Shown: positions 1 to 22,795 of the stretch, piece by piece
How the letters are laid out: each line of letters starts with the position of its first letter
Position numbering within the stretch: the stretch's first letter is position 1
NCBI RefSeq assembly: GCF_036370855.1
Contig: NC_088128.1
Span: 420,899-484,898, forward strand
DNA from: Dromaius novaehollandiae
Taxonomy: Eukaryota
Direction: 5' to 3'
DNA length: 64,000 bases
The notes under the pieces: model-generated
Told to the model about the DNA's origin: nothing
Seen by the model: only the letters and a program-made list of their open reading frames with translations
The model's database searches: none
Program-made: the position numbers and the translations under genes

Positions 1-171
1 CCCGTCACCCCCCAGTGCCACCCCTGGGTCTCCTGTCCCCCCCTAGTGCCACCCCTGGGTCCCCGTCACACCCTCCGGGTCCCTGTCCCCCTTGTCCTCC
101 CCCCTTTCCACCCCCGGGTGCCCCCCCGACCCCCGTGTCACCCGCGGGTGGCCCCGGCGTTGTCCCCGCAG

Positions 172-369
172 CTGGAGGACCTGGCGGAGGTGCCCGGCTT
201 CAGCGCCGCCACCGTGGCCGCCCTGCTCGAGGTGAGCGCCCGCCCCGCGGGGGGGGGGGGGGGACACGCGGGGAACACCCTGGTGACACCCAGGGACACC
301 CTGGTGACATGCGTCCCCTCCCCCCAGGCCAACCTGCCCGAAGCCCTGGAGTCTCCCGAGAGCCAATAA
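172..369 (+). CDS. 3'-terminal coding exons of an unidentified gene. Exon 172-231, intron 232-327 (gtgagc…ccccccag), last exon 328-369 ending in TAA. Peptide …LEDLAEVPGFSAATVAALLE/ANLPEALESPESQ* has a helix-hairpin-helix-like LxxVPGFxxATVAALL motif
   Basis: Pyrimidine-rich tract plus AG acceptor at 170-171. GAG|gtgagc donor at 231/232. Second acceptor ccccccag|GCC at 326-327. Open frame is continuous with ORF 46..369. Stop overlaps AATAAA. The 96-nt intron is a multiple of 3, so intron retention cannot be excluded. Confidence 0.4.
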   Translation: MEDLAEVPGFSAATVAALLEVSARPAGGGGGHAGNTLVTPRDTLVTCVPSPQANLPEALESPESQ

Positions 370-370
370 A
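365..370 (+). terminator. AATAAA polyadenylation signal overlapping the stop codon, followed by a GT/T-rich downstream element (tgtggtgttttttttgggggg, ~400-425)
   Basis: Hexamer caATAAAg sits immediately at the end of the terminal exon. A U-rich element lies 30-55 nt downstream. Confidence 0.4.
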
Positions 371-425
371 GAGTCGCCCCCGCCCGGACGCCTGGGCCCT
401 CTGTGGTGTTTTTTTTGGGGGGGAA

Positions 426-1500
426 CCATAGAGAGCGGGGTGAAGAGGCACCAGAGGGGCCACGTGCTGGGGACCATAGAGAGGGAGCCACGGGGGGACC
501 ATAGAGATGGGGGCAGTTGCAGGCGGCCCTGTGGTCATAGAGGGCTGGAGGGGGGATGCCAGAGTGTCCCTCTGCCAGGAGGCCATAGAGATGTGCTGGA
601 GCCTGGTCTAGAGGAGCCATGTGACCATAGAGACAGAGCAGAGGGTGTCCCAGAGGGTCGCTCCTCCAGGTGACCATAGAAATGCGCTGGAGCCTGGTCT
701 AGAGGAGCCACCTCACCATAGAGATGAGACACAGAGGGTGACCCAGATGGTCGCTCCTCCAGTGACCATAGAGTTGCTCTGGAGGCTGGTGCAGAGGAGC
801 CATCTGGCCATAGAGATGGAGGTGAGTGTGCTCCAGACAGTCATGCCTCTAGGCGACCATAGAGACGCGCTGGAGGCCGGTCCAGAGGAGCCATCTGACC
901 ATAGAGATGGAGTAGACTGTGTCCCAGATGGTCACTCCTCCAGGTGATCATAGAGACACAGAGGAGGCTGGTCTAGAGGAGCCATCTGACCATAGAGATG
1001 CGGTGGAATGTGTCCCAGATGGTCACTCCTCCAGGCGACCATAGAGTCGCTCCGGAGGCCGGCCCAGAGGAGCCATCTGACCATAGAGACAGAGCACAGG
1101 ATGTCCCAGACGGTCGCTCCTCCAGGCGACCATAGACACGTTCTGGAGGCCAGTCCAGAGGAGCCATCTGACCATAGAGACAGGGGGCAGAGGATGTCCC
1201 AGACGGTCGCTCCTCCAGGTGACCATAGAGACATGCTGGAGGCTGGCCCAGAGGAACCATCTGACCATAGAGATGAGGTGGAGGGTGTCCCAGACGGTCG
1301 CTCCTCCAGGAAACCATAGAGACGTTCCGGAGGCCAGTCCAGAGGAGCCATCTGACCATAGAGACAGGGGCCGAGTGTGTCCCAGACTCACTCTTCCAGG
1401 CGGCCATAGAGACACGCTGGAGGTTGGTCTAGACGAGCCATCTGACCATAGAGATGGGGCAAAGGGTGTCCCAGGCGGCCGCTCCTCCAGGCGACCACGG
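426..1500. repeat. Minisatellite of ~12 copies of a ~90-92 bp unit built from two ~45-bp half-units (…gaccatagagaNNNctggaggcYggtccagaggagccatctgaccatagagaYRg…gtcccagaYggtcRctcctccaggYgac)
   Basis: 'ccatctgaccatagaga' recurs at ~893, 981, 1071, 1161, 1255, 1347 and 1437 (period ~90). 'ccatagaga' recurs every ~45 bp from 426. Confidence 0.85.
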
Positions 1501-4500
1501 AGCTGCGGCGGCAGCACCCAGCCCGCCCCTCCCGCCGCGGCCACTCTGGCCCGCGCTCTCGGTGGCCGGGAGGGGGCGGGGCCTCGGGTGGGCGTTATGC
1601 AAATGAGGGGGCGGGACCCTTGGGGAATCAAGTTGCTCCCGGACACCTGGGCACTCGGACGCCTGGGCCCCTCAGAGAACTGAGTCACTCCCGGACGCCT
1701 GGGCCCCCCGGACACCTGGGCCCCTCCAGAGAGGGAGCGAGGGGCTGGGACAGAGCCCGGACGCCTGGGCCCCTGGGCTGGGGGTCAGGACGCACCCAGG
1801 AGCTGAGCCCTCCCCGGTGCGTGCGGGGCCCAGGCGTCCGGGCACCCCCCTCCCCCCAGTGCAGTCCCCGCTTCTCTCTGCGCAGAGGGCCCAGGCGTCC
1901 GGGAACAGCCCAATTCCCTGAGGGGCCCAGGCGTCCGAGTGCCCAGGGCATCCGGGAGTGACCCTGTCCTTCGAGGGGCCCAGGCGTCCGAGGGGCCCAG
2001 GCATCCGGGGCCGTGGGGGGACCCAGGGGTCGGAGGGGCCCAGGTGTCCGGAGAGGCGGCTGCACAGGGGCACCCGGACGCCTGGGCCCTCTGCGAGCGG
2101 GAATGGGAGGCAGCATCCCCGGACGCCTGGGCCCCCCCGGCTGCCTGGGCCCTTTGGGAACGTCCGAATTCGGATGCCCCGGACGCCTGGGCCCCTCATT
2201 GAATTGGGAGCCCGGACGCCTGGGCCCCTGGGAGAATCAAGTCACTCCCGGACGCCTGGGCCCCTTGGACGCCCCCAGACCCTGGGTCACTCCCCTCCTC
2301 TTGTTCACAGAGGGCCCAGGCGTCCCGGTGCCCCCGTGCAGCCGCCTCTCTGGACGCCTGGGCCCCTCGGATGCCTGGGCCCCTCGCACACGGGCTGAAG
2401 GGGGTCGGCTTGGGGTGGCAGCCGGACGTCTGGGCCCCTCATGTATGGTGGGGGGGGCGGGGGCCTGGGCTCCCCCAGACACCTGGGTCCCTTCGACGGC
2501 CCCAGTCCCCCCCCCCCAAGTCCGAGGGGCCCAGGCGTCCGAGGGGCCCAGGCGTCCGGGACGCCCAGACGTCCAGGCGCCCCCTGAGCCATGGACAGGG
2601 CGGCCCGGACGCCTGGGCCCCTCGAGCACTTCTGCTGCCTGAGACGCCCCCGGACGCCTGGGCCCCTTCCGGACGCCTGGGCCCCTCAGTGAATTGCTTC
2701 GCCCCGGACGCCTGGGCCCCTTGGAGATTTAGGTCTCTCCGGATGCCTGGGCCCCTCGAGCTCCTGGGCCCCGCCGGACGCCTGGGCCCTCCAGAGAGGG
2801 AGCAAAGGGCTGGGCATGGAGCCCGGACGCCTGGGCCCTCTGCCCGCGGGGGGAGGGGTGGCCACTGTTGGAGGGCGCCCGGACGCCTGGGCCCCCCGTA
2901 CATGGGGGCGGGGGGGGGGGGCTGGGGCCATGGGGAGGGGTCTGGCGTCAAGGAAAGGGCCCAGGCGTCCGGGGAAGGGCCCAGGCGTCCGGGAGTGACT
3001 TGATTCTCCCAGGGGCCCAGGTGTCCGAGGGGCCCCATTCTCTCAGGGGCCCAGGCGTCCGGGGTGACCCCCGTCTATGAGGGGCCCAGGCGTCCGGGGC
3101 AAAGCTAGTTCTCCGAGGGGCCCAGGCGTCCGGGTGCCCCCACGCGGCCGCCTCTCCGGACTCCTGGGTCCCCCGGACGCCTGGGCCCCTCACGAAGGAG
3201 CGGGGGGGGTCAGGTGGGGAGCGACTCCAGGACGCCTGGGCCCCTTGGCCGTGGGGAGGGGAGCAGCTAGTGGGGGGTGCCCGGATGCCTGGGCCCCTCG
3301 GACGCCTGGGCCCACTCTAAACGAGGGGAGGGGAGTGACCTGGGGGTGTCTGAGGGGCCCAGGCGTCCGGGCTCTGTCCTCAGCGGCCCTTCCCATAACC
3401 CATGACCCAGGGGCCCAGGCGTCCGGGAGCTACCGGATCCTCTGAGGGGCCCAGGCATCCCGGGCCCAGCCAAGTCTCTGAGGGGCCCAGGTGTCCGGGG
3501 AGACACAAGTCACCATGGGGCCCAGGCGTCCGGGGCACCCGAAGGGCCCAGGCGTCCGGGCTCCATCCCCAGGCCCTCGCTCCCTCTCTGGAGGGCCCAG
3601 GCGTCCGGGGGGCCCAGGCAGCCGAGGGGCCCAGGTGTCCGGGCATGCAGCAGCATTCAGGGGCCCAGGTGTCCGGCTCACCCCCCCCACAACTGCCCCC
3701 AAGGCCCCCCCGGACGCCTGGGCCCCTCCAGAGAGGGAGCGAGGGGCTGGGACAGAGCCCGGACGCCTGGGCCCCTGGGCTGGGGGTCAGGACGCACCCA
3801 GGAGCTGAGCCCTCCCCGGTGCGTGCGGGGCCCAGGCGTCCGGGCACCCCCCTCCCCCCAGTGCAGTCCCCGCTTCTCTCTGCGCAAAGGGCCCAGGCGT
3901 CCGGGAACAGCCCAGTTCCCTGAGGGGCCCAGGCGTCCGAGTGCCCAGGGCATCCGGCAGTGACCCCGTCCTTCGAGGGGCCCAGGAGTCCGAGGGGCCC
4001 AGGCGTCCGGGACGCCCCCTGAGCCATGGACAGGGCGGCCCGGACGCCTGGGCCCCTCGAGCGCCTCTGCTGCCTGAGACGCCCCCGGACGCCTGGGCCC
4101 CTCCCGGATGCCTGGGCCCCTCAGAGAACTGATTCAGTCACTCCTGGACATCTGGGTCCCCGGGACGCCTGGGCCCCTGGGACATGAGGTGAGGTGGGGT
4201 TCGGTTTGGGGGGGCGCCCGGACACCTGGGCCCTTTCCCGGACGCCTGGGCCCCTTGGCAGAACTGGAGCAGCCCTAGACACCTGGGCCCCTCGGACGCC
4301 TGGGCCCCTGGGAGAATCCAGTCACTCCCGGACGCCTGGGCCCCTCACGCACGGCGGGGGGGGGGCAGCGCTTTGGCTGTGTTGTCTGAGGGGCCCAGGC
4401 ATCCGGGGACACTCGAGGGACCGGAGGGCGCAGAGGGGCCCAGGCGTCCGGGCCCCCCCAATAGCTCCTCCACTCCCCCCCCCCACACACAGGGGGCCCA

Positions 4501-7500
4501 GGTGTCCGGGCGCCCACCCCCCATTGCCCCCTGCATGGAGGGGCCCAGGCGTCCGGGGGACCCAAACCTCCGAGGGGCCCAGGCGTCCGGGCCCTTCCCT
4601 CCCCCCCCCCAACCAAGCTGACCCGAACGACCCCCGGACGCCTGGGCCCCTCACAGAGAAGTTGGGGGGGGGGCAGTGCTCGGGCTGTGCTGTCCGAGGG
4701 GCCCAGGCGTCCGGGGACACTCGAGGGACCGGAGGGCGCAGAGGGGCCCAGGCGTCCGGGCTCCCTCCCAGCCCCTGGTTCCCTCTCTGGAGGGCCCAGG
4801 CGTCCGGGCACTCCCTGCCCCAGGAACGCCTGGGCCCCTCTGTGCCGGGGGGGGGGGAGTGGAGGAGCCATTGGGGGGTGCTCGGACGCCTGGGCCCCTC
4901 GGAGAGGTGGGACCCCGGGTGCCTGGATCCACTCGGACGCCTGGGCCCCTGGGAGAATCAGGTCGCCCCGGACGCCTGGGCCCCTCGGACACTTGGCTCG
5001 GCCCAGGACGCTTGGGCCCCTTGTTAAATTGGGCCATGCCCGGACGCCTGGGCCCCTCAGACACCCCCAGGTCACTCCCCTCCCCTCGTTTAGAGTGGGC
5101 CCAGGCGTCCGAGGGGCCCAGGCATCCGGGCACCCCCCACTAGCTGCTCCCCTCCCCCATGGCCAAGGGGCCCAGGCGTTCGGGGGACCCAGGAGTCCCC
5201 AAGTTGCTCCCCAGCTAAACCCACATTGGCACGTGTATGGGGGGCCCAGGCGTCCGGGGCCGTGGGGGGGACCCAGACGTGCGAGGGGCCCAGGCGTCCG
5301 GAGCGGGGGGTCCGTGCGGGGGCACCCGGACGCCTGGGCCCCTCGGAGAACTGCCTGTTCCCGGACGCCTGGGCCCCTGGGAGAATCAAGTCACTCCCGG
5401 ACGCCTGGGCCCTTCCCCGGACGCCTGGGCCCTTTGGGAGCCTCCGAATTCAGTTGCCCCGGACGCCTGGGCCCCTCATTGACTTGGGCCCCCGGACGCC
5501 TGGGCCCCTCGTTAGATGGGGCCGTCCCCGGACGCCTGGGCCCCTCGGAGAATCGAGTCACTCTCGGACGCCTGGGCCCTGTGGAGCATTGGGTACCCGG
5601 ACGCCTGGGCCCCTCGGACGCCTGGGCCCCCTCGATGCCCCCGGACGCCTGGGCCCCTGGTCCATGGGGGGAGGGGTTTGGGGCCATCAGGGGAGCCCAG
5701 GCATCCAGGGAAAGGGCCCAGGCATCCGGGAGTGACCTGATCCTCCCAGGGGCCCAGGCGTCCGAGGGGCCCAGGCGTCCGGGAGTGACTTATACTCCGA
5801 GGGGCCCAGGCGTCCGGGAGCAGGCAGTTCTCGGAGGGGCCCAGGCGTCCGGGGGGCCCAGGCGTCCCGGTGTTGCTCCCTAGCTGCCCCCCCCCCACAC
5901 CTGTCCAAGGGGCCCAGGCGTCCGGGGGGAGGGATGGGGGGACGCCTGGGCCCCTGGGACGCCTGGGCCCCTCCGTACAGGGGGCGATGGGGGGGGTGGG
6001 GGGTGCTCGGACGCCTGGGCCCCTCAAAGGACGGGGTCACTGCCGGATGCCCTGGGCACTCGGACGCCTGGGCCCCTCAGGGAATTGTGTTGCTCCAGGA
6101 CGCCTGGGCCCCCCCGGACACCTGGGCCCCACCGATGGCACCAGCCCCCCCCCCGCCATGGACAAGGGGCCCAGGCGTCCGGGGGCTGCAGGCATTCAGG
6201 GGGCCCAGGCGTCCGGCTGCCCCCCCAAGCTGACCCCCTTCAGCCCGTGTGCGAGGGGCCCAGGCGTCCGAGGGGCCCAGGCGTCCGGGGAATCCCAAAG
6301 GGCCCAGGCGTCCGGGGGGGCCCAGGTGTCCTGGAGCAAGAGAATTCACTGAGGGGGCCCAGGCGTCCGGGGGATCCAGGCAATTGGGGATGAACCGATT
6401 CTCCCAGGGGCCCAGGCGTCCTGGTGGGCCCAGCCCCTGTGCGGGGGGCCCGGACGCCTGGGCCCCTCCGGAGCCCCTGGACTGTTGCCACCATGATCGA
6501 AGGGCCCAGGCGTCCGGGGGTGACCTGATCCTCCCAGGGGCCCAGGCGTCCGAGGGTGACGTGATTCTCCCAGGGGCCCAGGTGTCCGGGGAGACCCACG
6601 TGTCGGAGGGGCCCAGGCGTCCGGGAGCAATTCAGTTCTCCCAGGGGCCCAGGCGTCCGAGGGGCCCAGGCGTCCGGACTCCCAATGCTCTACGGGGCCC
6701 AGGCGTCCGGGAGTAGCCAAATCACTGAGGGGCCCAGGCGTCCAAGGGGCCCAGGCGTCCGGGGACGGCCCAGTTCCCCCAGCAGATCCCCCTCGATCCC
6801 CCAGGACGCCTGGGCCCCCTGAACGCCCGGGTCTCCCAGATGCCTGGGCCCCCCAGACACCTGGGCCCCTCGGTGACTTGTGTTGCTCCCGGACGCCTGG
6901 GCCCCTCCCGGACGCCTGGGCCCCTCGGAGGATTAAGTTGCACTCGGACGCCTGGGCCCCTCGGACGCCTGGGCCCCTCGAATCCCGGGGTCCCTGGGAG
7001 AATCAAGTAACTCCCGGACGCCTGGGCCCCTCGGACGCCTGGGCCCCTCGAATCCCGGGGTCCCTGGGAGAATCAACTCCCGGACGCCTGGGCCCCTCGG
7101 AGAATGAGGTCACCCTCGGACGCCTGGCCCCCCCACACCCCCGGACGCCTGGGCCCCTGATGGCCCCTCATGGCAGAGACCACAACCCGAGAGCTGCCCC
7201 CCCCCCCCAACCAGTGCGTGAGGGGCCCAGGCGTCCGAGGGGCCCAGGCGTCCGGGGACGTTCAAGGTACTGGAGGGCGCAGAGGGGCCCAGGCGTCCGG
7301 GGGGCCCCGGCGTCCTGGGGGATCGAGGGGGATCTGCTGGGGGAACTGGGCCGTCCCCGGACGCCTGGGCCCCCGGGAGAATCAGGTGACCCCCGGACGC
7401 CTGGGCCCTTCGAACATGGTGGCAGAACTCCGGGGGCTCCGGAGGGGCCCAGGCGTCCGGGCCCCCCCACAGGGGCTGGGCAGTGCCCGGACACCTTGGC

Positions 7501-9420
7501 CCCCCGGACGCCTGGGCCCCTCAGGGGATCAGGTCGCTCCCGGACGCCTGGGCCCCCTTGGTGAATTAGGTCTCCCAGGACGCCTGGGCCCCTCGGACGC
7601 CTGGGCCCATCAGACACCCAGGCTCCCCCACCCCGCCATGGACGAGGGGCCCAGGCGTCCGGGCGCCCCCCAACAGCGGACACCCCTCCCCCCATGCGCA
7701 GAGGGCCCAGGCGTCCGGGGCACCCGAAGGGCCCAGGCGTCCGAGCTCCCTCTCTGGAGGGCCCAGGCGTCCGGGAGGGGCCCAGGAGCTCGAGGGGCCC
7801 AGGCGTCCGGGGGATCCAGGCAATTAGGGATGAACCGATTCTCCCAGGGGCCCAGGCGTCCTGGTGGGCCCAGCCCCCGTGTGGGGGGCCCGGACGCCTG
7901 GGCCCCTCCGGAGCCCCTGGACTGTTGCCACCATGATCGAAGGGCCCAGGCGTCCGGGGGTGACCTGATCCTCCCAGGGGCCCAGGCGTCCGAGGGTGAC
8001 GTGATTCTCCCAGGGGCCCAGGTGTCCGGGGAGACCCACGTGTCGGAGGGGCCCAGGCGTCCGGGAGCAATTCAGTTCTCCCAGGGGCCCAGGCGTCCGA
8101 GGGGCCCAGGCGTCCGGGGACGGCCCAGTTCCCCCAGCAGATCCCCCTCGATCCCCCAGGACGCCTGGGCCCCCTGAACGCCCGGGTCTCCCGGATGCCT
8201 GGGCCCCCCGGACACCTGGGCCCCTCGGTGACTTGTGTCGCTCCCGGACGCCTGGGCCCCTCGGAGGATTAAGTTGCACTCGGACGCCTGGGCCCCTCGG
8301 ACGCCTGGGCCCCTCGAATCCCGGGGTCCCTGGGAGAATCAACTCCCGGACGCCTGGGCCCCTCGGAGAATGAGGTCACCCTCGGACGCCTGGGCCCCCC
8401 ACACCCCCGGACGCCTGGGCCCCTGATGGCCCCTCATGGCAAGAGACCACAACCCGAGAGCTGCCCCCCCCCCCCCCAGTGCGTGAGGGGCCCAGGCGTC
8501 CGAGGGGCCCAGGCGTCCGGGGACGTTCAAGGTACTGGAGGGCGCAGAGGGGCCCAGGCGTCCGGGGGGCCCCGGCGTCCGGGAGACCCGGGCGTTCGGG
8601 GGCCCAGGCGTCCTGGGCGATCGAGGGGGATCTGCTGGGGGAACTGGGCCGTCCCCGGATGCCTGGGCCCCCGGGAGAATCAGGTCACCCCGGACGCCTG
8701 GGCCCTTCGAACATGGTGGCAGAACTCCGGGGGCTCCGGAGGGGCCCAGGCGTCCGGGCCCCCCCACAGGGGCTGGGCAGTGCCCGGACACCTTGGCCCC
8801 CCGGACGCCTGGGCCCCTCAGGGGATCAGGTCGCTCCCGGACGCCTGGGCCCCTGGGAGTATTGGGTACTTGGACGCCTGGGCCCCTCGGACGCCTGGGC
8901 CCATCAGACACCCAGGCTCCCCCACTCCGCCATGGACGAGGGGCCCAGGCGTCCGGGCGCCCCCCAACAGCGGACACCCCTCCCCCCATGCGCAGAGGGC
9001 CCAGGCGTCCGGGGCACCCGAAGGGCCCAGGCGTCCGAGCTCCCTCTCTGGAGGGCCCAGGCGTCCGGGGGGCCCAGGAGCTCGAGGGGCCCAGGCGTCC
9101 GGGAGGGGCCCAGGCGTCCGGGGGCGTCTCAGGCAGCAGAGGCGCTCGAGGGGCCCAGGCGTCCGGGCCGCCCTGTCCATGGCTCAGGGGGCGTCCCGGA
9201 CGCCTGGGCCCCTCGGACGCCTGGGCCCCTCCCCCAACTGCCTCGTGCCCGGACGCCGGGGCCCCTCAGAGGACTCAGTTGCTCTCGGACGCCTGGGCCC
9301 CCCGGACGCCTGGGCCCCTCAGGAAACTCGGTCGCCCCCAGGACGCCTGGGCCCTTCCAACATGGCGGCGACAGGCCAGGGGCTCCTGAGGGGCCCAGGC
9401 GTCCGGCCCCCCCCCCCCGG
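1500..9420. repeat. GC-rich complex satellite (~7.9 kb, ~200 copies) built on the core GGGGCCCAGGCGTCCG(G) and its reverse complement CCGGACGCCTGGGCCCC. Spacers are variable (20-40 bp) and the two orientations occur in alternating blocks
   Basis: Direct reading: blocks of 'cggacgcctgggcccct' (e.g. 1620-1780, 2080-2290, 4190-4330, 5320-5660, 6880-7160) alternate with blocks of 'ggggcccaggcgtccg' (e.g. 1830-2060, 2930-3130, 3350-3660, 5690-5880, 6250-6780). Proline/glycine-rich ORFs here are compositional artefacts. Confidence 0.9.
6365..9110. repeat. Higher-order repeat (HOR) inside the GC satellite. A ~1.3-1.45 kb block is present at least twice (6365-7800 and 7805-9110, with indels). Further HOR copies are 1735-1960 = 3733-3960 and 2560-2700 = 4000-4140
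   Basis: Near-identical stretches at fixed offsets: 6365-6720 vs 7805-8110 (offset 1440), 6878-7160 vs 8225-8440, 7207-7330 vs 8478-8600, 1735 vs 3733 (offset 1998). Confidence 0.6.
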
Positions 9421-9735
9421 ACGCCGGGGCCCCTCGCGGACGCCTCCAGCCCCGGCCGCGCCGCCGCGCGTCTGCGCCCCGGCGGCCCCTCAGCGCGCCC
9501 CACCCCTCTCGGCGGCTCCGGCCAATCATCGCGTGCGCCGCGCGCCGACAGCCAATGGGCGCGCGGCGGGGGCGGTGCCGGCGAGGAGGGCGCGGCCAAT
9601 GGGAGCGGAGCGCGGGAAGGCGGCAGCCGCCCCCTCCCCTCCCCCCCCCGCCCGGCTGTGGCGGCGTCGCCGCCGCGTGAGGAGCCGCCGCCGCCATTTT
9701 CTTCCCCCGCGCGAGGAAGCGGCGGGCGGAAGCGG
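9420..9735. promoter_or_regulatory. CpG-island promoter-like element: three CCAAT boxes (9522-9526, 9552-9556, 9596-9600), a GC box GGGGCGG (~9566-9576), a YY1-like GCCGCCATTTT (9688-9700) and two ETS-like CGGAAG/AGGAAG sites (9711-9734). It is TATA-less
   Basis: Motifs read directly from the sequence. CCAAT spacing of 30 and 44 bp is typical of NF-Y multi-box promoters. The element lies exactly between the GC-rich satellite and the G/T-rich array. Confidence 0.4.
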
Positions 9736-11190
9736 AACCGGGTGTTTGGGGCTTTTTCGGGGGGTTTTTGGGGGGCTTTTTCGGGGGGGGCGGTTGGGGG
9801 CTTTTCCTGGGGGGTTTTGGAGGTTTTGGGGGGCTTTTTCGGGGGGGTTGGGTCTTTTTCTGGGGGGGTTTTGGGGGCTTTTTCTGGGGGGTTTGGGGAC
9901 TTTAGGGGGCTTTGGGGGGGCTTTTTCGGGGGGGTTTGGTGGTCTTTTTCTGGGGGGGGTTGGGGGGTCTTTTTCTGGGGGGTTTTTGGGGGCTTTGGGG
10001 TTTTTTTTTCCGGGGGGGCTTTGGGGGTCTTTTTCTGGGGGGGGTTGGGGGCTTTTTGTGGGGGGGGTTGGGTCTTTTTCTGGGGGGGTTTGGGGGGGCT
10101 TTTTCTGGGGGTTGTGGGGGCTTTGGAGGGGCTTTTTCCGGGGGGGGGTTTTGGGGGGTCTTTTTCTGGGGGGGTTTGGGGGCTTTTTCTGGCGGTTTTG
10201 GGGGCTTTGGGGGGGCTTTTTCCGGGGGGTTTTGGGGGTCTTTTTGTGGGGGGGGGGTTGGGGGCTTTTTGTGGGGGGGTTTGGGGGGGCTTTTTCTGGG
10301 GCTTTTGGGGGCTTTTGGGGGGCTTTTTCTGGGGGGGGTTGGGGGGCTTTTTCTGGGGGGGGTTGGGGGGTCTTTTTCTGGGGGGGTTTGGGGGGCTTTT
10401 TCTGGGGGTTTGGGGGCTTTTTCTGGGGGGTTTTGAGGGGCTTTTTTTGCGTTTTGGGGCTTTTTCGCGGGGGTTTTGGGGGCTTTTTGGTGTTTTCAGG
10501 GGTCTTTTTCTGGGGGGGTTTTGGGGTCTTTTTCTGGGGGGGTGGGGGCTTTTTCTGGGGGATTTTGGGGGCTTTTTGGGGGGGTTTGGGGCTTTTTTGG
10601 GGGGTTTGGGGGGCTTTTTCGTGGGGGTTTTGAGGGCTTTTTGGGGTTTTTGGGGGGTCTTTTTCTGGGGGGGATTTTGGGGTCTTTCTGGGGGGGTTGG
10701 GGCTTTTAGGGGGTTTTGTGGGGCTTTTTCTGGGGGACTGGGGGCTTTTTTGGGGGGTTGGGGGCTTTTTTGCGGGGGTTTTGGGGGCTTTTGGGGGTTT
10801 TCGGGGGGGCTTTTTGAGGGTTTTGGAGGCTTTTTCGGGGCGGGGGGTTGGGGGGTCTTTTCCTGGGGGGGTTTTGGGGGGCTTTTTCTGTTTTTTTGGG
10901 GGGGGGCTTTTTCTGGGGGCGGTTGGGGGGCTTTTTTCCCCAGGGGGTTTTGGGGGCTTTTTCTGGGGATTTTGGGGCTTTCTCTGTTTTTTTGGGTTTT
11001 TTTTTCTGGGGGGTTTTGGGGGGCTTTTTCTGGGGGGGGGTTGGGGTCTTTTTCTGGGGGTTTTGGGGGTTTTGCAACTTTTTTTGTGAGTTTTACAATT
11101 TGGGTCTTTTTCTAGGTGTTTGTTGAGGCTTTTCTCTAGTTTTTTGGGGGGAGTTTCTAGGGTTTTGGTGACTTCTTACTACTTTTCTTT
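9735..11190. repeat. Degenerate G/T-rich tandem repeat (~27-30 bp unit, GGGGGCTTTTTCTGGGGGGGTTTTGGGGG-like). It is dense in G4-forming G-runs on the + strand
   Basis: Runs of 4 or more G separated by T-rich loops throughout. The ORFs 8426..10633 and 8479..11115 are stop-free artefacts. Confidence 0.85.
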
Positions 11191-14100
11191 GTGGCTTTTT
11201 CTAGGTTTTTGGGGGGGGCTTTTTTCCCCGTGGTTTTTTTGGCATTTTTTTCCCCCCGCGGTTGTTTTTTTTGGGGGCTTTTTTCCCCCCGCGGTTGTTT
11301 TTTTTGGGGCTTTTTCCCCCCGCGGTTGTTTTTTTTTGGGGGGCTTTTTCCCCCCGCGGGTGTTTTTTTTGGGGCTTTTTCCCCCCGCGGTTGTTTTTTT
11401 TGGGGGGCTTTTTCCCCCCGCGGTTGTTTTTTGGGGGGGCTTTTTTCCCCCACGGTTGTTTTTTTTGGGGCTTTTTTCCCCCACGGTTGTTTTTTTTGGG
11501 GCTTTTTTCCCCCACGGTTGTTTTTTTTGGGGGCTTTTTTCCCCCACGGTTGTTTTTTTTGGGGCTTTTTTCCCCCACGGTTGTTTTTTTTGGGGCTTTT
11601 TTCCCCCACGGTTGTTTTTTTTGGGGGCTTTTTCCCCCCCGCGGGTGTTTTTTTGGGGGCTTTTTCCCCCCACGGTTGTTTTTTTTGTGGCTTTTTCCCC
11701 CCGCGGTTGTTTTTTTTGGGGGGGCTTTTTTCCCCTGCGGTTGTTTTTTTTGGGGGCTTTTCCCCCCCGCAGTTTTTTTTTGGGGGGGCTTTTCCCCCCC
11801 GCAGTTTTTTTTTGGGGGGGCTGTTCCCCCCCGCGGTTGTTTTTTTTTTGGGCTTTTTCCCCCCGCGGTTGTTTTTTTTGGGGGCTTTTTCCCCCACGGT
11901 TGTTTTTTTTGGGGCTTTTTCCCCCCGCGGTTGTTTTTTTTGGGGGCTTTTCCCCCCCCGCGGTTGTTTTTTTGGGGGGCTTTTTCCCCCTGCGGTTGTT
12001 TTTTTTGGGGCTTTTTCCCCCCGCGGTTGTTTTTTTTGGGGCTTTTTCCCCCCCGCGGTTGTTTTTTTTGTGGCTTTTTCCCCCCGCGGTTGTTTTTTTT
12101 GGGGGCTTTTTCCCCCCGCGGTTGTTTTTTTGGGGGCTTTTTCCCCCCGCGGTTGTTTTTTTGGGGGCTTTTTCCCCCCGCGGTTGTTTTTTTGGGGGCT
12201 TTTTCCCCCCGCGGGTGTTTTTTTTTGGGGGGCTTTTTCCCCCCGCGGTTGTTTTTTTTTGGGGCTTTTTTCCCCCCGCGGTTGTTTTTTTTGGGGCTTT
12301 TTCCCCCCGCGGTTGTTTTTTTTGGGGGCTTTTTCCCCCCGCGGTTGTTTTTTTTGGGGCTTTTTCCCCCCGCGGTTGTTTTTTTTGGGGGGCTTTTTCC
12401 CCCCCGCGGTTGTTTTTTTTGGGGGGCTTTTTCCCCCCCGCGGTTGTTTTTTTGGGGGCTTTTTCCCCCCGCGGTTGTTTTTTTGGGGGCTTTTTCCCCC
12501 CACGGTTGTTTATTTTGGGCTTTTTCCCCCCGCGGTTGTTTTTTTGGGGGCTTTTTCCCCCCGCGGGTGTTTTTTTTTGGGGCTTTTTTGCCCCGCGGGT
12601 GTTTTTTTTTGGTGCTTTTTCCCCCCGCGGTTGTTTTTTTGGGGGGCTTTTTCCCCCCGCGGTTGTTTTTTTGGGGGGCTTTTTCCCCCCGCGGTTGTTT
12701 TTTTGGGGGCTTTTTCCCCCCGTGGTTGTTTTTTTTGGGGCTTTTTCCCCCCGCGGGTGTTTTTTTTGGGGGCTTTTTCCCCCCGCGGTTGTTTTTTTTG
12801 GGGGCTTTTTCCCCCCGCGGTTGTTTTTTTGGGGGCTTTTTCCCCCCGCGGTTGTTTTTTTTGGGGGCTTTTTCCCCCCGCGGTTGTTTTTTTGGGGGCT
12901 TTTTCCCCCCGCGGTTGTTTTTTTTTGGGGCTTTTTCCCCCCGCGGTTGTTTTTTTTGGCGGCTTTTTCCCCCCGCGGTTGTTTTTTTTGGGGGCTTTTT
13001 CCCCCCGCGGTTGTTTTTTTGGGGGCTTTTTCCCCCCGCGGGTGTTTTTTTGGGGGCTTTTCCCCCCCGCGGTTGTTTTTTTTGGGGGCTTTTTCCCCCC
13101 GCGGTTGGTTTTTTGGGGGGGCTTTTTCCCCCCGCGGTTGTTTTTTTTGGGGGCTTTTTCCCCCCGCGGTTGTTTTTTTGGGGGGCTTTTTCCCCCGCGG
13201 TTGTTTTTTTGGGGGCTTTTTCCCCCCCGCGGTTGTTTTTTTGGGGGCTTTTTCCCCCCGTGGTTGTTTTTTTGGGGCTTTTTTCCCCTGCGGTTGTTTT
13301 TTTTGGGGGCTTTTTCCCCCCGCGGTTGTTTTTTTTGGGGGCTTTTTCCCCCCGCGGTTGTTTTTTTGGGGGGCTTTTTCCCCCCGCGGTTGTTTTTTTG
13401 GGGGGCTTTTTCCCCCGCGGTTGTTTTTTTGGGGGCTTTTTCCCCCCCGCGGTTGTTTTTTTGGGGGCTTTTTCCCCCCGTGGTTGTTTTTTTGGGGCTT
13501 TTTTCCCCTGCGGTTGTTTTTTTTGGGGGCTTTTTCCCCCCGCGGTTGTTTTTTTTGGGGGCTTTTTCCCCCCGCGGTTGTTTTTTTGGGGGGCTTTTTC
13601 CCCCCGCGGTTGTTTTTTTTGGGGCTTTTTTCCCCCCGCGGGTGTTTTTTTTGGGGGCTTTTTCCCCCCGCGGTTGTTTTTTTTGGGGCTTTTTCCCCCC
13701 GCGGTTGTTTTTTTGGGGGGCTTTTTCCCCCCGCGGGTGTTTTTTTTGGGGGCTTTTTCCCCCCGCGGTTGTTTTTTTTGGGGGCTTTTTCCCCCCGCGG
13801 TTGTTTTTTTTGGGGGCTTTTTCCCCCCGCGGTTGTTTTTTTTGTGGCTTTTCCCCCCCGCGGTTGTTTTTTTTGGGGCTTTTCCCCCCGCGGTTGTTTT
13901 TTTTGGGGCTTTTCCCCCCGCGGTTGTTTTTTTTGTGGCTTTTTCCCCCCGCGGTTGTTTTTTTTGGGGGCTTTTTCCCCCCGCGGTTGTTTTTTTTGGG
14001 GGCTTTTTCCCCCCGCGGTTGTTTTTTTTGGGGGCTATTTTCCCCCCGCGGTTGTTTTTTTTGTGGCTTTTCCCCCCCGCGGTTGTTTTTTTTGGGGCTT

Positions 14101-14615
14101 TTCCCCCCGCGGTTGTTTTTTTTGGGGGCTTTTTCCCCCCGCGGTTGGTTTTTTTGGGGGGCTTTTTCCCCCCGCGGTTGTTTTTTTGGGGGCTTTTTCC
14201 CCCCGCGGTTGTTTTTTTTTTGGGCTTTTTCCCCCCGTGGTTGGTTTTTTTGGGGGGCTTTTTCCCCCCGCGGTTGTTGTTTTTTGGGGCTTTTTCCCCC
14301 CGCGGTTGTTTTTTTTTTGGGCTTTTTCCCCCCGTGGTTGGTTTTTTTGGGGGGCTTTTTCCCCCCGCGGTTGTTGTTTTTTGGGGCTTTTTCCCCCCGC
14401 GGTTGTTTTTTTTGGGGGCTTTTTCCCCCCGCGGTTGTTTTTTTTGGGGGCTTTTTCCCCCCGTGGTTGTTTTTTTGGGGGCTTTTTCCCCCCGCGGTTG
14501 TTTTTTTGGGGGCTTTTTCCCCCCGCGGTTGTTTTTTTGGGGGGCTTTTCCCCCCCGCGGTTGTTTTTTTGGGGGTTTTTTCCCCCCTGTTTTTTTTTTC
14601 TTGCAGCTTTTTCCC
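11190..14615. repeat. Highly regular tandem array of ~106 copies of the 31-33 bp unit GGGGGCTTTTTCCCCCCGCGGTTGTTTTTTTT. Each unit contains a G5/C5-6 hairpin (GGGGG-CTTTTT-CCCCC) and a CGCGG core
   Basis: The period-31 register is visible in the raw sequence (e.g. GGGG at 11467 and 11498). The ORF-track ORFs of 1187, 1259, 1343 and 448 (minus strand, lysine-rich) aa are artefacts of a stop-free repeat, because 31 is not a multiple of 3. Confidence 0.95.
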
Positions 14616-14619
14616 CTGT

Positions 14620-15293
14620 GGGTTTTTTCCTACTCAGGATGTGCTGCCCAGGTCTTTTTTGTTGTCTTTTTCATCTTGGCTGAGTATTCTCTCCTCACAG
14701 TCATGGCCTATGACCGCTACATTGCCATCTGCAGACCCCTGCACTACGGGACCCTCATGGGCAGCAGAGCTTGTGTCAAAATGGCAGCAGCTGCCTGGGC
14801 CAGTGGTTTTCTCAATGCTCTCCTGCACACTGCTAACACATTTTCAATACCACTCTGCCAAGGCAACACAGTGGAGCAGTTCTTCTGTGAAATCCCCCAG
14901 ATCCTCAAGCTCTCCTGCTCAGACTCCTACCTCAGGGAAGTTGGGGTTCTTGTGGTTGGAATTTGTTTAGTCTTTGGGTGTTTCATTTTCATTGTGCTGT
15001 CCTACGTGCAGATCTTCACTGCTGTGCTGAGGATCCCCTCTGAGCAGGGCCGGCACAAAGCCTTTTCCATGTGCCTCCCGCACCTGGCCGTGGTCTCCCT
15101 ACTCCTCAGCACTGTCATGTTTGCCTACCTGAAGCCCCCCTCCCTCTCCTCCCCATCTCTGGATCTGGTGGTGGCTGTTCTGTACTCGGTGGTGCCTCCA
15201 GCAGTGAACCCCCTCATCTACAGCATGAGGAACAAGGAGCTCAAGGAGGCACTGAAGAAACTCGGTCAGTTGGCACTGTTTCAGCAGCAGTAA
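14620..15293 (+). pseudogene. OR unit 1: 5'-truncated olfactory receptor (family 14 / gamma-c-like). Only TM3-end to C-terminus is retained (…SYSGCAAQVFF…MAYDRYIAICRPLHYG…KAFSMCLPHL…NPLIYSMRNKELK…*). The N-terminal ~95 codons are replaced by the 31-bp array
   Basis: Homology to the intact paralog (58116-59051) begins at ~14620 and runs to stop TAA at 15291-15293. No ATG or TM1-TM2 is present. The frame runs straight on from the satellite (ORF 11262..15293). Confidence 0.85.
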
Positions 15294-15504
15294 GCTGCCC
15301 ATCTCTCCTCACAAGTGATTTCCAAGCAATCTCTGGGAACATTTGTGGTTTGGGCATTCTCTCTGTGATGAACGTGTTTGTTCACAAATGTCTGAATTCA
15401 TCTCTCTTCTCCAGAGGTACAAACCCCGTCTCTCTGACCCAGAGGCCTTCCCTAAATCTACCGATCCCTGTCTCAGAGCTGGCCTCCCTTGCAGCATCTC
15501 TGTA

Positions 15505-15510
15505 ATAAAA
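15505..15510 (+). terminator. Candidate poly(A) signal AATAAA in the conserved OR 3' flank, ~213 nt after the stop. The same 'ctctgtaataaaagggg' is found after unit 2 (~23007) and, reverse-complemented, after unit 4 (~57908)
   Basis: The hexamer and its context are conserved in three of four OR units. Confidence 0.3.
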
Positions 15511-15602
15511 GGGGATTTCATCAGTACCCTGCCTGAAGGTTGGGCTTTTCTTCCAAAGCTGGGGCCAAAAACGTGCTCAGGGAATTGCACCTGAAAAGGC
15601 CC

Positions 15603-16432
15603 TGTTGCTGTGCCTGGGTTTTCCATGGGCTAAGGGGGATGTGCTCATAGGGTGATGTGTGAGGGAATGAGGGCTGGATTCAGCCCTCACTTGTGCGTGT
15701 CAGTGGCCCAGGAGAGGGTGAGTGCCCAAGCGGTGTCTGCTGGGGACTGTCTCAAATATTAGAGGGCTGGTGAGAGATGCCCATCCTTCTGCAAGGGAGT
15801 ATGGAGCCACCAGAAGAGCACAAGAGATCTCCAGGGACAGCATGTGCCTGGGATGGGCAGTGAGTGGAGACTCCCAAAGCCAAGTGGAGTCACCCATAGA
15901 TGAAGGGCCAAACCAAGGAATGCACCACATCAGGGCTCTGCAGTCTCAGGAGAGGCAGTGGGGACTCATCCAGCACAGGGAAGGCAGCCGCAAGAACGGT
16001 TCATGTCACATACAGTGAAAACCCATGGCTGGATCTAATGATGCACCTGACCCCATCCTGAGCCATTTGAGATGCCTTGTGATTGCTCTGAGCACCCTCC
16101 ACAGCCACAGACCCTGGGGAGCGGCTTGTCAGGCGCAGTGATGCTGGGCCAGCCGGGTCTGCCCTGACCAGCACGACCAGCGTGGAGTCACCCCGGGGCC
16201 CCACAGCTGCTCACTCTGCAGAGCAGCACCACCAGCCCGGGGAGCACAGCAGAGGGGTGCAGGAATGGCCGGTGAGGCCAGCACAGACACACTGATCAGA
16301 GGAAAGGCTCTCTGGAGAATAGGGATGTCTCTCGAGAAGAGCAAAGGAACAATTGTGGGCTTGCAGGGAGGAATTAATGAAAACCTGTTTCTATGTGTGT
16401 CAGCTCAGGACAGGCTGCTCTGTCACTGGACA
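15603..16432. repeat. Direct-repeat copy A (~830 bp) in the OR 3' flank. It has homologs within the window at 17396..~18260 (copy B, same orientation), 23105..23935 and 24898..~25760 (copies in unit 2), and, in inverted orientation, 33640-34700 and ~57000-57740
   Basis: Shared stretches include 'tgttgctgtgcc[tg]ggttttccatgggctaagg', 'tctcaaatattagagggctggtga', 'caaaccaaggaatgcaccacatcagggctctgcagtctcaggagagg' and 'tgctgggccagccgggtctgccctgaccagcacg'. Confidence 0.6.
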
Positions 16433-16589
16433 CTTTTACTAACCGAATCTATTCATTGTATCATATTTCCTCGTTCCTTCCCTTTCCTTTAAGCGTTTTC
16501 CAGTTTCCAACAGATGTTGAGTAACCTTGGTGTTCTGTCTGAGAAAGCTGTTGAGTTGATGGAAGGTTACTCCAAGTGGTACTGATATA

Positions 16590-16967
16590 TTAAATGGATC
16601 CAAACAAAGCCATCGTTTGTTCAGTCATATGAGAAGTTAACCAGTAAGTCTGCGTGGCGATTTGGTCAAAAACATAGGTCACATTACAACGGCTTTTGTT
16701 GCCTTCCATGTCTGTAGTACCCATCTCTATTGTCATAACCAGGTGCAGCTTCCCATCCCGTGTGTTATTACATATAGCTACCTTTAGAGTAACGTTAGAT
16801 CTTAGGGTCAGTGTAACATTATGGCCTACTATCAGTCCTTGACCTTGTGCTAATGATACAGATGGTATTTCTCTTGTAACTATAGTTTTAAAGATGGGTT
16901 GTGACTGATCTTCAATAACCAAGTTGTCCCATGGGCAACGTGAAAAGGCAGAACCTGTTAGAGGCAC
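16590..16967 (-). other. 125-aa ORF encoding a glycoprotein-like fragment with six N-x-S/T sequons (NVTLTLRSNVTLKVAICNNTRDGKL…NKSRCNVTY). It sits between direct repeats A and B and is of unknown origin
   Basis: The ORF lies within a ~960-bp insert (16432-17396). The extended minus-strand reading (…GSPIEKGVVSVAACIPAKTERKPYQSPGDEVVVKHPTQGSIWVTVLFYHGKGVRDAVD…) is broken by stops. I could not assign it to a known family. Confidence 0.25.
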
Positions 16968-17395
16968 ATTTCAGGTGTTTTTTTCCAGTTATCAGTGTCC
17001 CCACGGTTAGCAGCTAACACCACACTTCCCTGCAAGTGAAGACACCTAGGTCTTGGACATAATCCAAGCCTCATTTATGGTTAACTTGCTCTCTTCAGTG
17101 TCTACAGCATCCCGTACTCCTTTTCCATGGTAAAAGAGCACAGTCACCCATATTGATCCCTGAGTTGGATGTTTAACCACAACCTCATCTCCAGGACTTT
17201 GATAGGGTTTTCTTTCTGTTTTAGCAGGAATTCATGCAGCTACTGACACAACCCCCTTCTCTATGGGACTTCCTGTGGGAGTTTGTCGCTTATTTAGCCA
17301 ACTTTCTACTTCCCACAAATGGGATCCCCACTTAGAAGTAATCTAAAAAGAAGAGTCACTGTTGCTTCTGTCATCCACTCCATCTTTCTACTGCC

Positions 17396-18260
17396 TTGTT
17401 GCTGTGCCAGAGTTTTCCATGGGCTAAGGAACATGAGCTCACAGGGTGGTGTGTTAGGGAATGTCAGATGGATTCAGCCCTCCCTTGTGGGGGCCCAGTG
17501 ACCCTGAGGATGGTGAGCGGTAAAGAGGTCTCTGCTGCGGAGTGTCTCAAATATTAGAGGGCTGGTGACAGATGCCATCCTTCTGGAAGGGAGTATGGAA
17601 CCACTAAGAGAGCACAGGGCATCTCCAGGGGCAGTTTGTGCCTGGAGTGGGCAGTGAGTGGAGACTCCCCAAACCAAGTGGAGTCACCCAGAGGAAAGGG
17701 CCAAACCAGGGAATGCACCAAATCAGGGCTCTGCAGTCTCAGGAGAGGGAGTGGGCTGGGTCTAAGGACACACCTGAGCCATTGGAGATGGCCTGTGATT
17801 GCTCCAAGCATCCTCCACAGCCACAGACCCTGGGGAGGGCTTGTCAGGTGCAATGATGCTGGTCCAGCTGGATCTGCCCTCACCAGCACGGCCAATGCGG
17901 AGTCATCCCGGGGCCATACATCCTGCTTGCCCTGCAGAGCAGCACTGCCAGCCCAGCGCCCTGCAGGGAGCACAGGGCAGGGGTGCAGGAACGGCCAGAC
18001 CAGCATGGACACACACCTGGGGAAAGGCTCTCTGGGGAGCAGGGATGTCTCCGGAGAAGAGCAAAGGAACAATTGTGTGCTTGTGGGGAGGAATAAATGA
18101 AAACCTGTTTCCGTGTGTGTCAGCTCCGGGCAGGCTGCCCTGTCACTGGAGCTGCCTGAGGAGCCCCGGGGCCAGGACTCTTGTGCTGTGCTGGGGAGAG
18201 GGGCTGCCCAGAGGGGCTGCAGGCAGCCAGGGTTAAGGATCTCTGGTCGTGAGAGCAGGG
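17396..18260. repeat. Direct-repeat copy B (paralog of 15603-16432). It extends further than copy A at its right end
   Basis: See copy A. The stretch 18152-18260 still matches the inverted copy at 33830-33925, which copy A lacks. Confidence 0.55.
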
Positions 18261-19449
18261 GAGACATGGAGCGCCTGGCCTCCATTTCCTTGGGCCATTG
18301 CTGGCCCCCAGGTGTGGGGCTGATGGGGAGGCTGACACCCCTCTCTGCCCCCCAGCAGCTGCTGTGCCCTGCAGAGGGGCTGGGGCTGTGGGGTGAGTGC
18401 CCCGAGCTCTGCAGCCCCCTGCGGTGGGCACTGCTGTGGGGCCATCCCAGCCTGGTCTGCTGTGCTGGGTGGGCTGGGGAGAGGGCAGGGGAGGTGGGGA
18501 GAGCTGGGGAGGGTCTGGTCTGGTCTGGAAAGGGCCTGGGAGAGGCAAAATGCCAGCAGGCAGCTCCCATGCATGAATGGTGCCCAGAGCATGGGGAGGA
18601 AACTGGGGCAAAGACCCCTGCCCTCAGCTGCATGGCTGGGGCACTCGACAGGCGATGCCTTTGTGGGTGGCCAGGCTCCAGGTTCGGAGCAGATGCCAGG
18701 TCGAAGGCAGGAGCACTGGGACTGTGGTGAAGGCAAGTGGGCAGGCAGAGCCAGGCACACGCAGCTGCAAAGGCTGCCTTTGGAAAAGGCAGTGTGGGGC
18801 TGGTGAAGGCCCTCCCTCTCCTCCCCATGGGGAAGAGAGTCCCCAGGCAATGCTGGACTCTGCTTTGGCTGACAGGAAGGGAGCACAGGGCAGGGTGGAA
18901 GAGGCAGATGGAGCCTCTCCCGATGCATGAGGGAGTTTTCCAAAGCCCGGGGCTGAGCCAGGCACCTTTGGATCTTCCCCCCAACACTCTCCCAACCAGG
19001 CTCATTTTTCCCTGCCCTAGGTGCTCTCATCCCCCTGCCAGCCATGCCAGAGCAGAGGTTGAGGAGCAAGAGTTCATGGAGTGGCAGAGGAGTTTTGGTG
19101 GGAAGGGACCTCTGGAGGTCTCCAGCCAACCTCCCACATAAAGCAGGGCTGGTTGGAGCCCTACAGACTTCTCTGGTGATTGCTGGACTGTGCCTGACCC
19201 TGGTTACCATCCCCAAACCTGCTCTGCTCTTTTTTTCCAGGCACTGGGGGATGGCACCTCCCGTTGGGGCACTGTCCTGCCTGCCTTGCCGGCACCCTCG
19301 GCATTTTGAAGGGGCATGCTTTTCCTGTAGCTGTCATGCTGTATGTGCTGGAGACACCTCCTGTGTATTTGTGGGGTTCACAGGAGGGATCAGAATCCCA
19401 CTCCAGCCCAGGGGCTTCTAAACAGGCATGTGATGTCCAGATTGACTCA

Positions 19450-21996: not shown

Positions 21997-22795
21997 ATGT
22001 CCAACAGCAGCTCCCTCAATGAGTTCCTCCTCCTGGCGTTCACAGACACATGGGAGCTGCAGCTCTTGCACTTCTCACTCTTCCTGGGCACCTACCTGGC
22101 TGCCCTCCTGGGCAACGGCCTCATCATCACAGCCGTAGCCTGCGACCACCACCTCCACACCCACTGTCTTTTTGTTAGGAGGAGAGTATTCTCTCCTCAC
22201 AGTCATGGCCTATGACCGCTTTGTTGCCATCTGCAGACCCCTGCACTACGGGACCCTCATGGGCAGCAGAGCTTGTGTCAAAATGGCAGCAGCTGCCTGG
22301 GCCAGTGGTTTTCTCAATGCTCTCCTGCACACTGCTAACACATTTTCAATACCACTCTGCCAAGGCAATGTTGTGGACCAGTTCTTCTGTGAAATCCCCC
22401 AGATCCTCAAGCTCTCCTGCTCAGATGCCTACCTCAGGGAAGCTGGCCTTGTTGTGGCTAGTGTTTGTTTAGTTTTGGGGTGTTTTGTTTTCATTGTGCT
22501 GTCCTACGTGCAGATCTTCACTGCTGTGCTGAGGATCCCCTCTGAGCAGGGCCAGCACAAAGCCTTTTCCATGTGCCTCCCGCACCTGGCCATGGTCTTC
22601 CTCTTCATCAGCACCTCAGTTTTTGCTTATCTGAAGCCCCCCTCCCTCTCCTCCCCAGCTCTGGATCTGGTGGTGGCTGTTCTGTATTCAGTGGTGCCTC
22701 CAGCAGTGAACCCCCTCATCTACAGCATGAGGAACAAGGAGCTCAAGGATGCCCTGAGGAAACTCGTTCAGTTGGTACCATTTCAGCAGCAGTAA
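21997..22795 (+). pseudogene. OR unit 2: OR14/gamma-c-like gene with an internal 137-bp deletion (junction ~22160-22185). TM2, ECL1 and the start of TM3 are removed and the frame shifts, so it is a pseudogene
   Basis: ATG at 21997 (MSNSSSLNEFLLLAFTDTWELQLLHFSLFLGTYLAALLGNGLIITAVACDHHLHT…). It then jumps to …EYSLLTVMAYDRFVAICRPLHYG…NPLIYSMRNKELKDALRKLVQLVPFQQQ*. Length is 799 bp vs 936 bp for the intact paralog. Confidence 0.85.

Follow-up and report, generated by a model that had tools for sequence, protein, structure and literature searches.

A Promoter-Like CpG Island Between Satellite Arrays Near a Truncated Olfactory-Receptor Gene on a Small Emu Chromosome

Results

We analysed a 64,000-nucleotide stretch of the emu (Dromaius novaehollandiae) genome (assembly GCF_036370855.1, contig NC_088128.1, positions 420,899 to 484,898 of the forward strand), referred to below as the window. 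Its positions 9446–9745 (+ strand) form a single-copy CpG island of 300 bp with a GC content of 0.817 and a CpG observed/expected (o/e) ratio of 1.10. It lies between a GC-rich block of 17-mer repeats on the left and a G/T-rich array on the right, which confirms the CpG-rich segment of about 300 bp that an earlier note on this DNA had placed at an array junction. The promoter-like character of the island is well supported by its composition and motifs. As the best explanation, to which we give about an even chance, it would be a genuine TATA-less, housekeeping-type RNA polymerase II CpG-island promoter cut off from its gene. It is the last unique GC-rich element ahead of a domain of olfactory receptor (OR) amplicons. 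The present analysis extends the earlier description by the emu context, the 3′ end of KIF22, an OR14 gene that is truncated, and what is likely a boundary of gene-bearing DNA with amplicon heterochromatin.

Composition and Uniqueness of the Island

The interval 9420–9735, singled out in the earlier note, has a GC content of 0.826 and the same CpG o/e of 1.10. Its first 26 bases (9420–9445) are the final copy of the left-hand 17-mer and, according to a blastn search against the 64-kb window, the only part of the interval that matches elsewhere; 9446–9745 gave no second match. This segment is a CpG island by the definition of Gardiner-Garden and Frommer (at least 200 bp, G+C at least 50%, CpG o/e at least 0.6). 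The definition of Takai and Jones (at least 500 bp, G+C at least 55%, o/e at least 0.65) applies to 9270–9769, the best 500-bp interval (GC 0.786, o/e 0.95), about 180 bp of which belong to the 17-mer block.

Outside the island, CpG o/e was 0.52 in the 17-mer block (1620–9420), 0.30 in the G/T array, 0.81 in a 32-bp array further right and 0.16 in the remainder (14617–64000). TpG and CpA ratios showed no excess within the island (0.90 and 0.80, respectively), in contrast to the bulk sequence outside it (1.43 and 1.47). In the 32-bp array, 13 of the 16 variants of a CCGCGG site are CpG-to-TpG/CpA changes, a methylation-type decay which suggests that this array is methylated in the germ line. 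These contrasts indicate that the island is treated differently from its flanks. With its CpGs undepleted and, unlike its flanks, no TpG/CpA excess, the island itself has probably escaped germ-line methylation. The GC skew is −0.28 at 9400–9500 and lies between +0.45 and +0.70 from 9700 on, the sequence being C-rich to the left and G-rich to the right of the island; in unmethylated islands, the skew is typically positive downstream of a start site.

The earlier note raised the possibility that the motif cluster is a unit of a larger satellite. The island would then be one copy of a repeated unit, either an amplicon or a composite satellite, with many copies elsewhere in the emu genome. All of its surroundings are indeed repetitive, with blocks of up to 300 bp duplicated at 98–100% identity in the window, and dot-chromosome heterochromatin in chicken carries amplified gene and long non-coding RNA (lncRNA) units (PMC9974502). 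However, the island is single-copy in the 64 kb, a tiny part of the genome, and it is missing from the second OR amplicon copy (22184–26076, 96.8% identity) and from the other OR copies. It is also absent from two ostrich OR loci, which share only OR sequence with the window. We regard a repeated unit as quite improbable. Two metagenome scans with island patterns returned no matches.

Promoter Motifs and Chance Tests

Three CCAAT boxes lie on the + strand at 9522, 9552 and 9596, spaced 30 and 44 bp apart, and all three fit the extended consensus RRCCAATSR. A GC box, GGGGCGG (9569–9575, +), is located between the second and the third. The YY1 site GCCGCCATTTT occupies 9690–9700 (+) and includes CGCCATTTT at 9692–9700, a match to the exact YY1 consensus CGCCATNTT, as well as an initiator-like CCATTTT at 9694. 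Two ETS-core motifs follow 13 bp apart within 9714–9732 (+), namely AGGAAG at 9714 and CGGAAG at 9727. GCGGGAA at 9612 and GGGCGG at 9724 (both +) are also present. Measured from CCATTTT, the CCAAT boxes lie 100–174 bp upstream and the ETS sites 18–31 bp downstream. The CCAAT trio with its spacing, the GC box, the YY1-like motif and the ETS-type pair had all been listed in the earlier note, and each was recovered at its position.

A motif check revealed no TATA, NRF1 or cAMP response element (CRE) motifs in the island, and no endoplasmic reticulum (ER)-stress element (CCAAT-N9-CCACG) was seen there when the sequence was read by eye. The NF-Y/Sp1/YY1/ETS set without TATA is that of a housekeeping-type promoter. 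A cell cycle genes homology region (CHR; TTTGAA/TTYGAA) is lacking, as neither TTTGAA nor TTCAAA occurs in 9401–9760, and the island is therefore not a G2/M promoter of the CHR type.

The motifs were compared with 20,000 dinucleotide-preserving shuffles of 9446–9745. At least three same-strand CCAAT boxes occurred in 5 of the 20,000, and at least three RRCCAATSR matches in none. The YY1 motif AANATGGCG appeared in 105 shuffles (0.5%), and at least two MGGAAG hexamers in 1390 (7%). The full combination was never obtained (0/20,000). Furthermore, RRCCAATSR has no match in the adjoining 7.8-kb GC-rich block, which is of similar composition. Given the shuffles and this empty neighbour, the NF-Y and YY1 parts are clearly non-random. 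The ETS pair alone is within chance and is weak evidence by itself.

These figures bear on the suggestion that the island is a dead relic or a by-product of composition, that is, a unique spacer between expanding arrays whose motifs are leftovers or chance and whose CpG-richness stems from GC-biased gene conversion or recent origin, with no promoter activity today. Local composition does favour CpG-rich sequence, since 1.5–9.7 kb is 74% GC with a CpG o/e of about 0.5 compared to 0.16 in the OR domain. Heterochromatin of the chicken dot chromosomes is hypermethylated (PMC9974502), and the ETS-type hexamers are unremarkable, as noted. However, with 1.10 and no TpG/CpA excess, the island has double the o/e of the adjoining GC-rich block, and a methylated relic would be expected to lose its CpGs as the 32-bp array does. 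Three NF-Y boxes with a consensus YY1 site were absent from every shuffle, and the neighbouring block is devoid of RRCCAATSR. On balance, we find an inactive relic rather unlikely.

A second YY1-type motif, AACATGGCGGC (9359–9369, +), lies 80 bp left of the island, inside the last unit of the 17-mer block. Related copies of this unit elsewhere carry AACATGGTGGC at the corresponding place.

Flanking Repeats and Genes

The block to the left of the island (1640–9445) has a GC content of 74% and contains 213 copies of the core GGGCCCAGGCGTCCG in both orientations. The earlier description of a GC-rich satellite holds as far as repeats are present; it is not a simple array, as the 15–17-mer copies, in both orientations, are set in segmentally duplicated blocks. 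The duplications, of 1.3–1.44 kb and 2 kb and with up to 100% identity, are both direct and inverted; for example, 6354–6653 equals 7794–8093 at 99% identity, and the arms 3975–4122 and 9084–9231 are 99% complementary. The longest non-repeat stretch in the block is 66 bp, so it has no space for exons, and its long open reading frames (ORFs) are repeat translations. A literature search turned up no mention of the 17-mer motif.

The earlier note saw no recognisable gene on either side of the island; this statement has to be replaced. The 3′ end of KIF22 lies 9.1 kb upstream on the same strand, and a truncated OR14 pseudogene begins 4.9 kb downstream. The penultimate coding exon of KIF22 (172–231, +) encodes LEDLAEVPGFSAATVAALLE and is bounded by a CAG acceptor and a GTGAGC donor. 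The last coding exon (328–369, +) encodes ANLPEALESPESQ*; its stop codon falls within AATAAA (365–370), and a T/G-rich stretch follows. In a search of 1.84 billion representative proteins, the spliced 33-residue peptide had one match, ostrich KIF22 isoform X2 (XP_068779331.1), aligning to residues 454–486 of 486 with 82% identity (E = 7.9e-6; tblastn E = 2e-5). A padded 41-residue version of the peptide found no match in a word-indexed protein search. Ostrich KIF22 aligns to the window at 172–366 only, with no duplicated 5′ end, which ruled out the island as a duplicated KIF22 5′ end or promoter.

To the right, the G/T-rich array (9748–11074, +) adjoins the island. Its unit of approximately GGGGGCTTTTTCTGGGGGGGTTT recurs with a period of 21–25 bp, and the array has a GC skew of +0.68, 15 A in 1329 nt and several G-quadruplex-type motifs. 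The 31-bp period given earlier for this array needs correction, the 32-bp array beginning only at 11247. The latter (11247–14616, +) consists of 106 copies of TTTTTCCCCCCGCGGTTGTTTTTTTTGGGGGC with 92% identity. The 12-mer GGGGGCTTTTTC is found in 18 copies in the G/T array, in 58 copies in the 32-bp array and nowhere else in the window. Sharing it, the two right-hand arrays are variants of one family. The + strand of 9746–14600 contains 44 A in 4855 nt and hence almost no AG dinucleotides; it has no poly(A) signal, AATAAA first appearing on the + strand past the island at 15504.

The 32-bp array runs directly into the coding sequence of an OR14-type receptor, a 5′-truncated pseudogene (14625–15293, +). 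Residues 1–82 are gone and residues ~83–310 are kept, with the array in place of the first two transmembrane segments (TM1–TM2). AG acceptor-like sites are present at 14605 and 14636, and the first in-frame ATG opens MAYDRY.

The promoter evidence presented above would equally suit a working promoter of an intact, unrecognised gene, either an lncRNA or a GC-rich "hidden" avian gene. Its first exon would lie at approximately 9690–9740 (+), or its start would be the ATG of AAAATGGCGGC (−), with the arrays in an intron or in the transcript. The − strand reads CTTCCG, CTTCC and then AAAATGGCGGCGGCGGC, which would give MAAAAP, a common start for GC-rich genes. GC-rich genes of avian microchromosomes often contain tandem repeats and are missed by annotation. 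In chicken, the telomere-to-telomere (T2T) assembly added 307 previously missed genes on the dot chromosomes (PMC9974502). However, the six frames of 9440–9748 found no match at E ≤ 10 among 5.8 billion proteins, and a coding first exon was rejected on this ground. For a leftward start, the frame beginning with MAAAAPHAAATPP matches no protein and runs into the repeat block, where the left 7.8 kb offers no unique stretch above 66 bp and only repeat-derived ORFs. The − strand has no poly(A) signal in 1–9800. Rightward, no non-repeat sequence is met before the interior of an OR gene. No other non-OR coding similarity was found, nor any to MAZ, the gene after KIF22 in human; this last result, from a tblastn search of the window with a human MAZ sequence, is a weak negative. 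An intact gene of this kind is, in our judgement, unlikely.

A small RNA gene or known RNA family was also considered and rejected, as a search of the whole window against Rfam gave nothing at gathering thresholds. Below threshold, only weak miRNA-like hairpins arising from inverted 17-mers were seen.

Proposed Origin and Likely Present Activity

The earlier note offered two alternatives, a captured promoter of a destroyed gene or a promoter of repeat-derived RNA. The two are neither separable nor exclusive: the first is favoured as the origin, and satellite transcription is the likely present activity. A captured promoter is favoured because of the context: KIF22 lies upstream, the island borders the OR amplicon domain, and the next receptor has lost its first 82 codons to the array. 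Most likely, the island would have served a gene formerly located after KIF22 on a small, GC-rich chromosome of the emu. As the satellites expanded and the OR14 amplicon spread, the body of this gene would have been removed or displaced by the very events that joined the array to the inner part of the receptor gene.

In the proposed arrangement, NF-Y on the three CCAAT boxes and Sp1 on the GC box between them would keep the island open and unmethylated. YY1 on GCCGCCATTTT would help to set initiation at approximately 9690–9700 on the + strand, and ETS/GABP-type factors would bind just downstream of the YY1 site. Relative to a start at approximately 9694–9700 (+), the three CCAAT boxes would occupy about −100 to −174 and the GC box about −125; the ETS motifs would lie at +18 and +31.

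The turn in GC skew and the order of the motifs favour rightward transcription, and the island probably still fires in that direction into the satellite. The present transcript would pass through 4.9 kb of A-poor G/T satellite into the truncated OR pseudogene and end at the AATAAA at 15504. Splicing to AG at 14605 or 14636 is conceivable, and the transcript would encode at most a receptor fragment beginning with MAYDRY. Since no poly(A) signal precedes 15504 and a truncated receptor lies beyond the arrays, the product would be either a non-coding RNA or a chimeric pseudogene RNA. On the C-rich left side, a weaker divergent transcript could start and run into the 17-mer block.

Several points weigh against a promoter severed from its gene. 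The activity of the island is inferred from its sequence, and its high CpG o/e could reflect a young segment or, on a GC-rich microchromosome, maintenance by GC-biased gene conversion. Its direction is also ambiguous, as the ATG-bearing strand of the YY1 motif (AAAATGGCGGC) is the − strand, on which the ETS sites would lie just upstream. The 44-bp CCAAT spacing is outside the preferred distances; CCAAT boxes usually occur at −60 to −100, and those of the island lie at a somewhat greater distance from the proposed start. On the + strand, CGG|GTGTTT at 9742 is the first donor candidate and a weak one. The lack of a MAZ trace in the window, with the reservation made above, also counts here; the human MAZ promoter is not known to contain CCAAT boxes.

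Comparison with Known Promoter Classes

Orphan CpG islands, reportedly described by Illingworth et al. in 2010 among others, are CpG-island promoters not attached to an annotated gene. Like them, the emu island is short and unique, its CpGs are undepleted, it carries housekeeping-type motifs, and no annotated gene start lies on the site. In mammals, orphan islands are usually located in unique intergenic or intragenic DNA, whereas the emu island lies between satellite arrays at an OR-amplicon border on a small avian chromosome. It would be classed as an orphan CpG island by position and as an NF-Y/Sp1/YY1 CpG-island promoter by its predicted working, an ordinary kind of element in an unusual place.

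NF-Y-bound regions often contain two CCAAT boxes that are 24–30 or 35–37 bp apart and enclose Sp1 sites; the peaks of NF-Y, YY1, GABP and ZNF143 overlap, and those of NF-Y, YY1 and GABP co-occur in human promoters (PMC4889920). With such multi-CCAAT promoters (PMC4889920) the island shares same-strand boxes with the extended consensus, the 30-bp spacing, an Sp1 site between boxes, the lack of TATA, and YY1 and GABP-type motifs. In contrast to G2/M NF-Y promoters, it has neither a CHR nor a pair of cell cycle-dependent element (CDE) and CHR, its second spacing is 44 bp, and it has no linked cell-cycle gene. KIF22, which is a cell-cycle gene, ends 9 kb upstream of the island.

As an initiator, YY1 works through CCATTTT on the + strand; the P5+1 element of adeno-associated virus (AAV) is an example. 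A YY1 consensus of CGCCATNTT and a consensus probe core of CCGCCATTTT have been reported (PMC1904287), and the island site agrees with both. It shares with YY1 initiator elements the exact CGCCATTTT core, and its CCATTTT lies on the strand on which NF-Y and Sp1 sites precede it. It differs from them in that the ATG-bearing orientation of its motif points the other way and in that the site is a predicted one.

Bidirectional CpG-island promoters are enriched for NF-Y, YY1, GABPA and Sp1, according to Lin et al. 2007 as cited in PMC4889920. The island resembles them in its motif set and in the reversal of GC skew across it. However, it has no head-to-head gene pair, with the 17-mer block on its left and the G/T array on its right; such promoters are defined by two divergent genes whose start sites are separated by less than 1 kb, and no such pair occurs here.

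Chromosomal Setting

From left to right, the window passes from KIF22 (~75% GC) through the satellites to OR14 copies with 54% GC and strong CpG depletion; OR14 copies and their duplications make up the rest of it. In ostrich, KIF22 is on a 4.79-Mb chromosome record with OR14 genes at 1.18 and 4.0 Mb. A single small chromosome record thus holds both in ostrich, and in emu they are no more than 15 kb apart. A literature search for the neighbours of KIF22 in birds found nothing, nor did the supplements of the chicken T2T assembly.

Chicken dot chromosomes of ~4 Mb have a compact, very GC-rich housekeeping part and a satellite-rich heterochromatic part; the latter holds amplified genes, such as 386 copies of an olfactory receptor on chr29, and this satellite/OR-amplicon heterochromatin "invades the euchromatin" (PMC9974502). 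By analogy, the emu window likely represents the same kind of boundary between gene-bearing GC-rich DNA and a satellite/OR-amplicon domain. It shares with the chicken boundary (OR29G amplicons on chr29; PMC9974502) a record of ~3–5 Mb, GC-rich housekeeping genes beside satellites and a massively duplicated OR family, and in both the amplicons adjoin gene-bearing DNA. The likeness, between different species, is one of layout and does not imply homology to chr29.

A further reading assigns the island a function at this boundary. It would be a live promoter, unmethylated in the germ line, that marks the gene-bearing edge on a dot-like emu chromosome and transcribes the satellite, serving either as a barrier against OR-amplicon heterochromatin or as the source of a functional satellite or chimeric OR RNA. 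As part of the same reading, the G-rich non-template strand of the satellite would be prone to G-quadruplex and R-loop formation. We hold such a role to be very doubtful.

If the island is active, it would be a housekeeping promoter that has outlived the loss of its gene, and satellite transcription would begin at a defined site where gene-rich DNA meets an expanding OR amplicon domain on a tiny avian chromosome. Borders of this type are a recent finding from the complete chicken genome. If one of them does carry a fixed unmethylated NF-Y/YY1 island, this would offer a handle on how the domains stay apart. If inactive, the island would simply be a fossil promoter by which the rearrangement can be dated. 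In both cases, the local picture is corrected: KIF22 ends at 369, and the OR14 gene is truncated by the arrays.

Additional Features of the Window

The C-terminus of KIF22 encoded here is carried by no emu protein in the searched collections. Since only ostrich isoform X2 matches it, the emu KIF22 model may be missing or shortened in the current annotation.

A single copy of the 17-mer (CCCGGACGCCTGGGCCC) occurs at 383–399, about 15 nt past the KIF22 poly(A) signal and more than 1.2 kb from the main block; the motif is therefore dispersed and not limited to that block. Directly after the KIF22 3′ end, a 91-bp tandem repeat (575–1497) is present in ~10 copies with 80% identity, a higher-order period of 456 bp and a recurring GACCATAGAGA.

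A unique GC-rich segment of 139 bp (1501–1639; CpG o/e 0.75) is the only other non-repeat stretch above 66 bp between KIF22 and the island. It carries a perfect octamer, ATGCAAAT, at 1597 between the GC boxes GGGGGCGGGG and GGGGGCGGGAC and resembles an Oct-1/Sp1 enhancer or promoter module. No small nuclear RNA (snRNA) or other Rfam family was found near it. An ancestral promoter region might have been split by the 17-mer block, with this segment as its second half.

Besides the truncated receptor, the window contains an OR14-type pseudogene with an internal deletion of approximately residues 60–102 (21997–22795, +), an OR14-type copy at ~35747–36676 (−) and an intact OR14-type receptor of 311 residues (58116–59051, −). 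The exact sequence of the intact receptor was not present in a collection of 15 billion proteins. Positions 14682–18565 are duplicated at 22184–26076, a tandem duplication of ~3.9 kb, and further OR-containing duplications with 80–94% identity are spread across the window. On the strength of these duplications, the receptor cluster is a recently growing amplicon.

A search with the truncated receptor returned mostly emu proteins. Among the emu proteins, XP_064355515.1 is annotated as [quoted passage not shown] on a 3.31-Mb record. By tblastn, the first 178 of its 222 residues match 14733–15266 at 99.4% (177/178), and its C-terminal stretch, compared by eye with the ORF translation, fits the end of the second OR copy (ending at 22795). 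This protein is thus a chimeric gene model that joins parts of two OR14 pseudogenes.

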